DNA from: a virus
Taxonomy: Duplodnaviria > Heunggongvirae > Uroviricota > Caudoviricetes
DNA length: 64,000 bases
Direction: 5' to 3' (one strand)
IMG/VR virus record: IMGVR_UViG_651053023_000001
Location: 39,131 to 103,130 of that record
Part shown: positions 27,001-30,000 of the stretch, in pieces
Layout: every line of letters begins with the position of its first letter
Position numbering within the stretch: the first letter of the stretch is position 1
Made by a program: the position numbers

Positions 27001-30000
27001 CAGTGTGGTTGTATTTATGGACCGCAGCGAAAGGTGGCCTGGAGAATCCTTGATGCCCAATACTTCGGAGTGGCACAACGACGCCGACGCGTGTTTGTTG
27101 TCGCAAGTGCTCGAACAGACCTCGATCCCGCAACGGTACTTTTTGAGTTCGAAGGCGTGCGCCGGAATATTGCGCCGAGCAGAGGCGAGGGGAAGGAAAC
27201 TACCAGATATACTTCAAACATCGCTATCAGATCTTGCGATGATACAAACATAGTTGCCATGGCACATGGGCAAGGAGGGGCTGAGATAAAAACCGATAAT
27301 TCGGCACCAACTTTGACATGTAACCATGAAGCACCAATTGTATTGCTCGTCGACGGTAGAATGCGCCGTCTTATCCCTGTCGAATGTGAAAGGCTGCAAG
27401 GTTTTCCTGATGGACATACATTGATCCCTACGGAAAAGCGTAAAAAAGTTTCTTCAGATGAACTGGCATACCTTCGCAAAAACTATCCTGATTTGAGCGA
27501 AGAAGAGGCCGCGATGCTTGCAGCTGACGGACCGCGTTACAAAGCGATCGGCAATAGTATGGCGATACCAGTAATGCGCTGGATTGGCGATCGGATTGCC
27601 AAGGCTGCATGTCGGCAGAAGGAAGGGAGTGAAACAAAAGAGCGAAAAGTTAAACCAGCGGCAGAATTCGAACGGTCCATATTCAAATGGGCTGGTGGAA
27701 AATTTGGTGTTCTGGAACAAATCTTTCGCTATTTGCCAGAAGGGAAGCGCCTGATTGAGCCTTTCGTTGGTGGCGGAGCTGTCTTCATGAATGCCGGATA
27801 CCAGGAAAATCTGCTAAATGATGTGAATGCTGACCTGATTAACTTTTACAAGACTCTGCAACGCGAGGCGCATTCACTTATCACTCTGGCACATCGTTTC
27901 TTCCAGGACTACAACACGCAGGAAGGATACCTGGCAGTACGGAATGCGTTTAACAAACAAGTCTATGATGATTTACATCGCGCAGCGGCGTTTTTGTTCC
28001 TGAACCGACATTGTTTTAACGGATTGACGCGTTACAACCAAGCCGGTGAGTTCAATGTCGGTTATGGGAAGTATAAAACTCCGTATTTCCCATTGCAGGA
28101 GATGGAAGCCTTCCTTGGTGCGGAAGGGCGTTCTGAGTTTGTATGTGGTGATTTTGCTGCGGTGATTGAAGCTGCCGGAGAAGGAGATGTCATCTTTTGC
28201 GATCCGCCGTATGAACCGCTCCCAAATACAGAGGGATTTACGAACTATTCCGGTCATGACTTTAAGTTTGAAGAGCAAAAACGCCTGGCGTCTCTGTTGA
28301 CGGATGCTCATCGCCGAGGTGCAAAGGTTCTCATTACTAACAGTGGCGCGCCAAACATCAGAGAACTTTATCAGGACAGTGGCTTCAGAGTGGAACCTCT
28401 TTTTGCCAGACGTTCTGTGTCTTGTAAGGGGGACACTCGAGGTGTTGCTCATGACGTTATGGCAATATTGCTCTAATAAATTTATTAGTGTAATATCGCC
28501 TCAATGAATCGTGATTTATAGAGCGATTTAGCTGTTAGCCGCGACAGGCGCGGCGGCAAGTATGGCGGGGTAGTGACTCCTTCCCCCTCATGACGCCGAG
28601 TTGCCAGGTTGACCATACGCCTAAGTGGCAACACCGAAGTGCGTTACGAGCTTCCAGTTTGCCCATCTTCGGGTGGGCGTTTTTTTCAGGGTTTTCGTCA
28701 TGGTTAGCGACTTTGCGGCGGTTTAGAAACTGACCATTAAAGTAAATGCAAACGATGATCTGATGATGGTAGCGGCCTAAGAAGCCAGACGCCACGGGGT
28801 ATGAGTCGTCCCCCGTCAAAAAATCGACCGCAGAGTGTCCCCGTCTGTGTATTAGGGAACGGGGAGGCACAACAGGTAAGGGCGCTGGTGTGATTAACCA
28901 GATGAACGAGAAGGGGCCATCTGTTGGTCAGCGTCCTTTCCTGTTGCGTCTTCTTTTCAGCGTAACAGCGGTGCTTAACAGCACTTTGGGTACAGTTCCA
29001 CGAATTTACGGGTATATCCCGTCATGCTGAAAGCGCTAATCACGCTGGAAGCCAGGGTTATGCATCCCCTGTTACCGAATTGCAGCCAGGGCGCGGTGCG
29101 CCGAAAAGCATACGGAGGTGGAAGCCCTCGCCGGAGACGTACCCGGCAAGTGATGGTGTAGCTCAGCGGTTAGAGCGGTTGACTGTTAATCAACGGGTCG
29201 ATGGTTCAAATCCATCCACCATCGCCAATGCCGGTTTAGCTCAGTTGGTAGAGCGCCTGCCTTGTAAGCAGGATGTCAGCGGTTCGAGTCCGTTAATCGG
29301 CACCAGCACAACAGGTAAGGGTATTTTGCGACGTCGGAGATCGCCGAGCTTGGCAGAGGGTTCGAATCCCTACGAAGTACCCTTACCGTTGTGATGAAGT
29401 GCAGCTCTTTGAAGCAACCAGAAGATAAGCATCTGGCTTCACAACATAAACCGCAGGAACGACCAATAAACGGTAGTCCGTATGGAGAACACCCCGTTGA
29501 GGAAGAGGCCTGGCCGGAACCGTAACCGGCACTACAACGTTGAGAACACTGGCGTAACGGGGTCATATCCCAATCTACGAATAAATGTTGCGTTGCAGCG
29601 TGACAACCAGTGTTCTCAACATTGTGGTGAATGCACAGGCTGATGTGCCGCAACTACAGTAGTGCGCGCTTTGCGGGGCTTGCTACAACCCTGTGTCGGA
29701 GTTCAGCACCGACCATCACAGTTTGATTCTCTGGCATGAGCATAACGCTGAAATAAGTCCAGTCTGGTGCGGCCTGATCACCCGCCGTTAGCTCCACGAA
29801 ACGGAGCACGTAACAGGTAAGAGCATTCTCCTGTAACGGGTTCATATCCCAATCTACAGGTCCACCAGGAATGCTCTTTCCGTTGCGGTGAATGCGGCTA
29901 AGCGCACGCGGGGAAATGGTTATATCTGTCCATTATTTCTCCTTATTTCCCCGTCCACGGTGGATAACCAGCTAAAGGACACCGGGAAGCACCCGGCACC

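Follow-up and report, generated by a model that had tools for sequence, protein, structure and literature searches.

We analysed 64,000 nucleotides (nt) of a Caudoviricetes genome from IMG/VR (record IMGVR_UViG_651053023_000001, positions 39,131 to 103,130), hereafter the window, and in particular the gap of 675 bp (28477-29151) that lies between the end of the dmt open reading frame (ORF) at 28476 and the start of a tRNA-Asn gene at 29152. The source genome is a P1-like phage or phage-plasmid: the stretch 28400-29400 is 97% identical to positions 68600-69596 of phage P1 (NC_005856) and 98.6% identical to P7, and the order of the locus (dmt, operator and promoters, leader, trnA, trnT) is the same as in P1. 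The original prediction had described the gap as GC-rich and non-coding, with several stem-loops, a terminator-like hairpin and a C1 operator-like site at its 5' edge, and had suggested a structured leader for the tRNA operon; the region and each of the features named are present where it had placed them. The GC-richness is no more than mild (52.9% in the gap, 48.4% in the whole window and 49.8% in dmt). The operator-like site (28467-28483) is base for base the annotated Oban a of P1 (former Op72a), overlapped by Oban b, and the stem-loops are above chance: helices covary in relatives, and the long hairpin A of Table 1 folds with a z of -5.6 (a z of -5.8 was also recorded in the hairpin folding test).

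The GenBank record of P1 gives the order Oban/Pban, 'dicF-like region', trnA, trnT, tciABC, trnI and ban. The gap is the 5' leader of the C1-repressed ban operon, as already annotated in P1, and, since that annotation marks the C1-controlled start of the operon, it is not new to read the region as a leader under repressor control. A generic promoter consensus scan makes no call at P1ban or P2ban, because their hexamers are weak. The gap itself is not spacer, but a modular chain of conserved non-coding RNA modules, which are separable and are also found independently in other phages (Table 1). Of the leader that had been suggested for the tRNA operon, the structured and conserved non-coding RNA, the C1-controlled promoter upstream and the tRNAs downstream hold, but it is not a single tRNA leader; it is a ban-operon leader composed of separable modules.

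Table 1. Features of the dmt-trnA gap and of its immediate surroundings (window coordinates).
Feature	Position	Strand	Remarks
P2ban, sigma-70 promoter of the ban operon	28451-28482	+	Identical to annotated P1 feature
Oban a/b (former Op72a/b), divalent C1 repressor operator	28467-28494	.	Identical to annotated operators of P1 and P7
P1ban, sigma-70 promoter of the ban operon	28468-28496	+	Identical to annotated P1 feature
Three-hairpin scaffold ('module M')	28538-28632	+	Homologous to ~98 nt directly upstream of mature DicF in Qin-type prophages
Scaffold hairpins S1, S2, S3	28538-28554, 28564-28589, 28598-28632	+	S2 and S3 covary
P1-specific 3' domain	28636-28686	+	Small hairpin 28636-28654, then intrinsic terminator, invariant in P1-likes
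Tag RNA	28688-28866	+	Member of a widespread phage non-coding RNA family
Tag RNA, arm antisense to host tmRNA	28688-28736	+
Tag RNA, linker	28737-28747	+
Tag RNA, start-less tag frame	28748-28780	+	GCA..TAA, ANDDLMMVAA*
Tag RNA, stop-codon hairpin	28774-28786	+
Tag RNA, helix H3	28794-28816	+
Tag RNA, pseudoknot	stem S1 28829-28834/28844-28849, stem S2 28838-28843/28860-28865	+
Long hairpin A	28862-28953	+	Outer stem CACAACAGGUAAGGG...CCUUUCCUGUUGCG; same family as the hairpin after lambda tR'
Pre-tRNA segment	28954-29151	+	Found only in the P1 family (20 phage records, all P1-like)
tRNA-Asn(GUU)	29152-29227	+
tRNA-Thr(UGU)	29230-29305	+	Downstream, co-transcribed with tRNA-Asn
Hairpin copies B and C	29306-29393, 29808-29888	+	Outer stem as in A

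The tag RNA and its start-less reading frame

The module on which most of the interpretation turns is the tag RNA, whose P1 copy aligns end to end with the other members of the family. An Rfam scan of the whole window at gathering level returned only tRNAs, C4, sok and ALIL, and no family in the gap, but below that level the tag templates of the window and of its relatives matched families of transfer-messenger RNA (tmRNA) with 24-40 bits. In the window this is a weak match to permuted tmRNA, 24.1 bits, over UAAAU GCA AAC GAU GAU CUG AUG AUG GUA GCG GCC UAA; the best relative, from Klebsiella phage-plasmids (tag ANDDVVLMAA*), scored 39.6 bits, and the gathering threshold of 47 bits (RF00023 / RF04321) is reached by neither. 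The matched letters hold ten codons and a stop, to be compared with ANDENYALAA of E. coli SsrA. In lambdoid prophages the tag RNA lies downstream of Q/PR'/tR', and the tag is ANEEMYLAVA*.

This frame is under coding-type selection. A pattern search for the tag RNA gave at least 120 viral contigs, and the ten codons with their stop are kept in 129 copies out of 129, the first stop being codon 11 in 47 of the 47 unique contexts. The 15 distinct tag peptides follow the form AN(D/E)(D/E/N)xx(L/M)(A/M/V/I)(A/V)A, with one copy ending in AP. Entropy within the frame is 9.1 at third codon positions vs 5.0 at first and 4.0 at second positions, and single-nucleotide codon differences are synonymous and non-synonymous in a ratio of 231:209, compared with 16:490 and 85:389 in the other frames; among the P1-like copies the tag changes only synonymously or from V to A. 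The length of an overlapping AUG frame in the same region varies from 5 to 13 codons. A conserved protein-coding frame had been named by the original prediction as a finding that would speak against it: one conserved frame does exist, but it is a start-less tag frame of ten codons, similar to that of tmRNA, and not a protein gene.

The sequence before the frame is also conserved. The 27 nt upstream of the tag are near-invariant, and U(-5) and A(-4), in AUAAAU followed by GCA, are invariant; these are the equivalents of U85/A86, which set the tag frame in E. coli tmRNA (PMC2481249). The tag RNA therefore shares with tmRNA (SsrA, the two-piece forms included) this U and A, a start-less frame that opens with a GCA resume codon (GCA AAC GA.), the ending in hydrophobic-Ala-Ala (..AA) and a stop after ten codons as in E. 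coli, the position of the stop codon in the loop of a small hairpin, and a pseudoknot 3' of the tag. The tag is unlikely to be translated in the conventional way: an AUG, a GUG and a Shine-Dalgarno sequence are all missing in frame, and an in-frame UAG lies eight codons upstream.

At the level of structure, H3 and the helix CGCACU/GGUGUG covary: paired cells amount to 97.6%, compared with 34-59% when the partner columns are slid, and 37 cells show double changes vs 11±3 in shuffles. The CGCACU/GGUGUG helix and a variable stem (GCCC/GGGC, AUCC/GGAU or GGCGGGAG/CUCCCGCC; UCCCCG/CGGGGA in P1) make up the pseudoknot, which is of the H type. A closure of the RNA by its flanks GUUGUG...CACAAC was rejected, being not conserved in L136, L153 and P1.

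The half of tmRNA that resembles a tRNA was looked for in several ways. ARAGORN found no tmRNA in the window or in the nine relatives scanned, and none of the T-loop-containing inserts checked by eye (hairpin B, those of L135 and L137, and the 'tRNA-Ala(cgc)' of phage St11Ph5) has G3:U70. Homology to tmRNA over the whole gene is not supported, blastn against E. coli ssrA aligning the tag region alone, and weakly. Since no tRNA-like domain was found, the tag RNA is not a tmRNA, from which it differs also in the absence of an alanine identity element, in Rfam scores below gathering, in length (~180 nt vs ~360 nt) and in the arm antisense to tmRNA, which no tmRNA carries.

Two observations on neighbouring elements may be added here. 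Window positions 29769-29807 read as a T-arm-like stem and then CGUUAGCUCC-ACGAAAC-GGAGC (GCUCC-ACGAAAC-GGAGC, with A3:U70); the equivalent in L137, GCUGGGUUGAUCUCCAGC-CGU-CAGCUCC-ACGA, is close to the 3' end of E. coli tmRNA, GCGGGUUCAACUCCCGC-CAGCUCC-ACCA, and the element may be a remnant of ssrA or of attP. Its association with the tag RNA is not consistent, and it was rejected as an obligatory partner: among the 106 tag loci with 1,500 nt or more of downstream sequence, only 36 have an element of this type. In St11Ph5 (L255), a virulent N4-like phage, the degenerate 'tRNA-Ala(cgc)', with U3:A70, lies before the tag RNA (1820-1891), and at least five T-loop-containing tRNA-like elements, none of them called by ARAGORN, lie after it (2290-2730).

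The tag RNA was found in 706 GenBank phage records, including HK620, Klebsiella and Jersey-like siphophages, Felixounavirus, Ackermannviridae, N4-like Gamaleyavirus and the P1-likes, and in 849 of 5,426 E. coli genomes. Members occur in six or more enterobacterial phage groups that are unrelated to each other; they have hardly ever been annotated and are often located within tRNA arrays. The contexts of the tag RNA and of the scaffold-terminator unit described below include lambdoid early and late operons, promoters of their own (in L005, L166 and L243) and the tRNA arrays of virulent phages. What amounts to a natural knockout occurs in an IncY P1-like plasmid (L006, NZ_LC511659), in which a TnpB-only element of the IS200/IS605 type (1172-2500) is inserted in the antisense arm, at window 28726/28727, and a deletion of ~36 nt has removed part of H3 and the start of the pseudoknot region.

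Complementarity of the tag RNA to host tmRNA

The first 33-49 nt of the tag RNA are complementary to nt ~56-107 of E. coli tmRNA, a target that comprises the 3' strand of pseudoknot 1 (PK1), the A-run, U85/A86, the resume codon and codons 1-6 of the host tag. The reverse complement of tmRNA nt 67-107 is GUAGUUUUCGUCGUUUGCGACUAUUUUUUGCGGCUUUUUAC, and the phage consensus reads AUAGUUUUCGUC, a variable loop and GCGACU-UUGCGGUUUUUUA. In 26 of 28 diverse members nt 67-107 are the best duplex site on tmRNA (25-35 bp, dG -27 to -40 kcal/mol, median z -4). Pairing of the arms with the tag region of their own RNA is far weaker (-11 to -24), since it is precisely in codons 3-7 that phage and host tags diverge. 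If the duplex is prolonged in the direction of the resume codon, it extends as far as tmRNA nt 54-56, with 10-12 nt left single-stranded ahead of the phage GCA; the resume codon of native tmRNA comes 12 nt after PK1 (PMC2481249). Cofolding of the full-length RNAs gave a ddG of -13 to -14 kcal/mol in three non-P1 members vs -3 to -6 with shuffled arms, the shuffle controls being mononucleotide shuffles. On the host side, the target region is essentially invariant in 121 tmRNA genes of Enterobacterales and Pasteurellales. The 3' domain of the tag RNA has no significant complementarity to tmRNA. In the free tag RNA there is an invariant helix, UUUGCG/UGCAAA, which may sequester the phage resume codon.

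On the strength of this complementarity we lean, with modest confidence, towards the view that the tag RNA, as one part of the module chain, acts on host tmRNA by base pairing, either by masking or destroying the host template and nothing else, or by bringing in its own template as well. The second version can be put forward only tentatively: the tag RNA might turn host tmRNA into a chimeric, two-piece molecule, in which the arm takes the place of PK1 and of the template, and the phage RNA brings its own resume codon at the native distance. Only this template-supplying version accounts for the conservation of the frame, for the resume context and for the spacing. We know of no precedent for the use of a host tRNA-like domain in trans, except for the natural two-piece tmRNAs.

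Several considerations weigh against these readings. For every module, what goes beyond sequence, structure and conservation is inference. The arm pairing of P1 is the weakest of the family, with a duplex z of about -2.4 to -2.8, and its full-length cofold gains -5.3 kcal/mol, no better than shuffled arms; moreover, the folding models ignore PK1 of tmRNA, SmpB and S1, all of which would compete with docking. As the host target is invariant across Enterobacterales, co-variation between phage and host cannot confirm the pairing, and the arm could derive in part from ancestry, through the inverted duplication of an ssrA fragment. With no tRNA-like domain of alanine identity in the tag RNA, translation of the tag would require the use of that of the host in trans, and the phage tags still end in AA, so that the gain from a swap of tags is not evident. 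Finally, the terminator that precedes the P1 copy may keep its level low, and the tag RNA, split by TnpB and partly deleted in the IncY plasmid mentioned above, is dispensable for plasmid maintenance.

Alternatively, the tag RNA could be an antisense inhibitor of host tmRNA and nothing more, which by sequestration, or by directing RNase III to cleave the template, would shut down tagging and rescue in lytic growth, the tag frame remaining unused on host tmRNA. We regard this as unlikely, but as the first of the alternatives to be considered. The complementarity of the arm is, in fact, the best-supported interaction, its interrupted duplex of 30-45 bp would be a plausible substrate of RNase III, a tRNA-like domain was not found, and an antisense oligonucleotide directed to the tmRNA template stops trans-translation in vitro, as cited in PMC8012679. 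However, pure inhibition leaves unexplained why exactly ten codons and a stop are present in 47 of 47 contexts, with variation at third positions and the AND./..AA chemistry of the peptides, and why the context of the resume codon and the spacing of 10-12 nt are kept.

The small-RNA unit and the rest of the leader

Upstream of the tag RNA, the unit at 28538-28686 is, by sequence comparison, built like a dicF locus, but is not DicF. Window 28539-28636 has ~82% identity to chromosomal prophage sequence in 4,432 of 5,426 complete E. coli genomes; the K-12 copy of the scaffold, located between ydfC and dicB of the Qin prophage, ends ~25 nt before the Rfam match to DicF (76.7 bits), so that the homology covers the region 5' of mature DicF and not DicF itself. 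In 120 viral contigs fetched with a 16-mer from the scaffold, ~98 nt are constant and the ~55-75 nt that follow are exchangeable, being canonical DicF, at least six other sequences of GC hairpin plus T-run, or the P1 version. A variable GC hairpin and a T-run come next after the 123 scaffold copies of the fetched loci (110 distinct flanking sequences). Compensatory pairs were found both in S2 (CGGGG/CCCCG, CUGGGG/CUCCAG and CAGGUG/CACCUG, with CUGGG/CCCAG in P1 proper) and in S3 (UUGUCA/UGACAA, UUGCCA/UGGCAA and UCGUCA/UGACAG). In L017, an IMG/VR P1-like contig, S2 contains an insertion of 23 nt with a G11 run (~window 28571), either an assembly artefact or a real expansion.

The hairpin and T-run that had been noticed at 28659-28686 are the strong intrinsic terminator of this unit, with a stem of 8 bp (28660-28679), a UUCG loop and T7 up to 28686. 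In a terminator consensus scan alone it is not above chance (2 overlapping hits vs 1.0±1.0 in shuffles), and we take it, as well as the promoters, as real because of conservation and not of scan score: the comparison of P1-like genomes, suggested by the original prediction, found the modules conserved and the terminator hairpin invariant in ten of the ten aligned sequences, D6 included despite its unrelated upstream sequence. The unit probably yields a small RNA ending at 28686.

This terminator also lends itself to another explanation of the whole gap, that is, an attenuated leader of the ban and tRNA operon in which the terminator tunes read-through, while the rest is structured spacer or context for tRNA processing and nothing acts in trans. 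The location between Pban and the tRNAs, the distance of 190 nt between promoter and terminator, and the finding of 28954-29151 only in P1-likes, beside the tRNAs, agree with such a leader. It is nevertheless improbable, because the scaffold-terminator unit and the tag RNA are separable in other contexts, and the modules show covariation and coding-type constraint.

The 'dicF-like region' of the P1 record (68791-68892, window ~28594-28696) covers S3 and the terminator, and the label misses the three-hairpin scaffold, the tag RNA and the lambda-type hairpins. As in the dicF loci of Qin/Kim-type prophages, the ~98-nt scaffold of three hairpins lies directly 5' of a short hairpin-terminator RNA in a repressor-controlled operon, and the P1 unit shares with DicF the location 3' of a prophage scaffold and the end at a Rho-independent terminator. 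The 5' end of DicF arises when RNase E processes the transcript of the operon, whereas its 53-nt form acquires its 3' end by Rho-independent termination (PMC5069750). By contrast, the 3' RNA of P1 is unrelated in sequence, and the unit begins ~35 nt downstream of the promoter, whereas dicF comes after three ORFs. The Rfam model of DicF (RF00039, gathering 48 bits), for which Qin with the score given above was the positive control, had no match at E<=1 in 4 kb and none at E<=10 in 691 nt, and the duplex of the P1 3' domain with ftsZ from -60 to +45 was no better than shuffles (fractions 0.80 and 0.53), in a weak test in which DicF itself reached 0.09. A functional DicF orthologue, blocking ftsZ translation and cell division, is on these grounds, and as the homology stops before mature DicF, very unlikely, in spite of the P1 label, of the scaffold common to dicF loci and of the adjoining tciA/B/C, annotated by homology as linked to cell division or colicin resistance.

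Downstream of the tag RNA, hairpin A shows a compensatory change from C:G to U:A in SJ46 and D6, and its outer stem ACAAC/GUUGU becomes CUAUC/GAUAG in L136 and L153. A homologous hairpin with the same outer stem (CACAACAGGUAAGAGC...GCUCUUUCCGUUGUG) is found in the late leader of lambda just after tR' (44788-44862), where it is placed, as in P1, after a promoter-proximal terminator in a long leader; unlike lambda, P1 has three copies with differing interiors, one of them with a T-loop-like motif. The late leader of lambda is reportedly processed by RNase III at such a hairpin. In the pre-tRNA segment, a hypervariable hairpin (28968-28989) has a stem that differs in each lineage with the pairing kept (GUGCU/AGCAC, AAUUGCU/AGCAAUU, AUGUG/CACAU, GCCAUU/AAUGGC) between near-invariant flanks, and has the look of a determinant of specificity or of a scar left by recombination; an acceptor-like stem around it, UUCAGC/GCUGAA, showed no covariation and was rejected. 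The remainder, 29006-29151, is near-invariant in P1-likes, including a hairpin at 29008-29022.

Two alternatives are weaker still. The tag RNA could be the decaying remnant of an ssrA fragment caught by an ancestral phage and functionless now, as ssrA is an integration site of many mobile elements (PMC11915505), some relatives have a T-arm-like stem and then CAGCUCCACGA, which resembles the tmRNA 3' end, and the RNA is disrupted in one plasmid lineage; but a module kept in 706 phage genomes of unrelated virulent and temperate families, with the frame intact in every copy, substitutions of the synonymous type, covarying helices and 27 near-invariant nt upstream, is most unlikely to be a relic. 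That the gap codes for protein has a negligible probability: although ORFs are present in the window and some GenBank records give a 'hypothetical protein', the minus-strand ORF 28535-28870 (111 aa, GTG start), which the original prediction had rightly thought spurious, carries frameshifts or stops in relatives that include P1, P7, SJ46 and D6, and the plus-strand frame of 46 aa (28890-29030) is interrupted in six relatives, SJ46 and D6 among them. The plus-strand frame of 45 aa (29024-29161), intact in most P1-likes and running into tRNA-Asn, lacks a Shine-Dalgarno sequence and owes its survival only to the near-invariance of the DNA there. None of the three has a match in Pfam.

Structured RNA seems to continue beyond the gap. 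The homologue of P1 'plp' (29276-29653, minus strand) matches nothing in Pfam and overlaps three elements of the opposite strand, namely tRNA-Thr, hairpin B and one that is tRNA-like; the homologue of 'upl' is at 29654-29845. Both look doubtful as annotated genes, and the whole of 28500-30036 appears to be plus-strand structured RNA. The tRNA-like element (29623-29720) has an acceptor-like stem UGUGGUG/CAUCACA, a D-arm-like hairpin and a T-arm-like GUCGGAGUUCAGCACCGAC, with no ARAGORN call; at a comparable position downstream of tRNA-Thr, compared by position, ARAGORN calls an 87-nt tRNA-Ser(UGA) in P7 and D6. Just upstream of tciA, 29884-30003 has a sub-threshold Rfam match to STnc100 (33 bits); its GGUGAAUGCGG...CACCGGGAAGCACCCGGCACC element is also present ahead of dicB in Qin, and in the ViI-like contig L220 it exceeds the threshold, with 48.7 bits. 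At 30737-30812 ARAGORN calls a tRNA-Met(CAU), whose P1 homologue is annotated as tRNA-Ile2 (ileX-like, lysidine-dependent). The gathering-level matches elsewhere in the window are a C4 antisense RNA with a1/b1 targets at 7568-7774, a sok antitoxin RNA at 11232-11406, and two identical ALIL pseudoknots at 43957-44073 and 47523-47639, suggesting two copies of an IS3-family element.

A possible course of events and its significance

If the modules act in the order in which they lie, the following course can be proposed. C1 would leave Oban (Op72) and RNA polymerase would start at P1ban/P2ban, as follows from their identity to the P1 annotation. Termination at 28686 would release a small RNA of the dicF-locus type, with targets probably unlike those of DicF. 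Since the terminator lies only ~190 nt from the promoter, everything downstream would depend on read-through, and the read-through RNA would include the tag RNA. The lambda-type long hairpins, as probable RNase III sites, together with tRNA processing, could then cut the precursor into tag RNA, tRNA-Asn and tRNA-Thr. The arm of the tag RNA may dock on host tmRNA and mask the host tag template; docking would free the resume codon from the UUUGCG/UGCAAA helix and would hold it 10-12 nt beyond the duplex, the distance from PK1 at which native tmRNA has its resume codon. Ribosomes under rescue would be either blocked or made to copy a tag specified by the phage. In the latter case, those rescued by host Ala-tmRNA-SmpB would append AANDDLMMVAA instead of AANDENYALAA.

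Among phage-encoded RNAs, the nearest comparison is mycobacteriophage DS6A, with a 'TLD-only' partial tmRNA (tRNA-like domain only) for which interference with the trans-translation of the host has been proposed (PMC4131195, PMC11915505). What DS6A retains is the tRNA-like half, without the tag; the tag RNA is the converse, a tag template without the tRNA-like half, with the antisense arm in addition. The tmRNA databases hold phage tmRNAs with a tRNA-like domain and the 'TLD-only' form of DS6A, and no template-only form (PMC4131195, PMC11915505); a limited search of the open-access literature found no description of a phage RNA that is tag-only or directed against tmRNA, and the one RNA-seq study of P1 that it brought up has nothing on the present region.

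These results have consequences at different levels. As regards annotation, the 'dicF-like region' of P1 is not a DicF gene, and dicF loci become one case in which a conserved scaffold is followed by a 3' small RNA that can be exchanged. The tag RNA is an RNA family that had gone unrecognised in heavily studied phages, P1, HK620 and the Felix O1-like, ViI-like and N4-like phages, and raises the question of whether the template of tmRNA can be supplied in trans. If the pairing with tmRNA is true, the tag RNA would be a natural means by which phages regulate or re-programme ribosome rescue, and would link phage tRNA arrays to the handling of stalled ribosomes, which would be relevant to defence systems that cleave tRNA or mRNA. 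If the template-supplying version is true as well, hundreds of temperate and virulent enterobacterial phages would carry, often inside their tRNA arrays, a trans-acting and exchangeable template for trans-translation.

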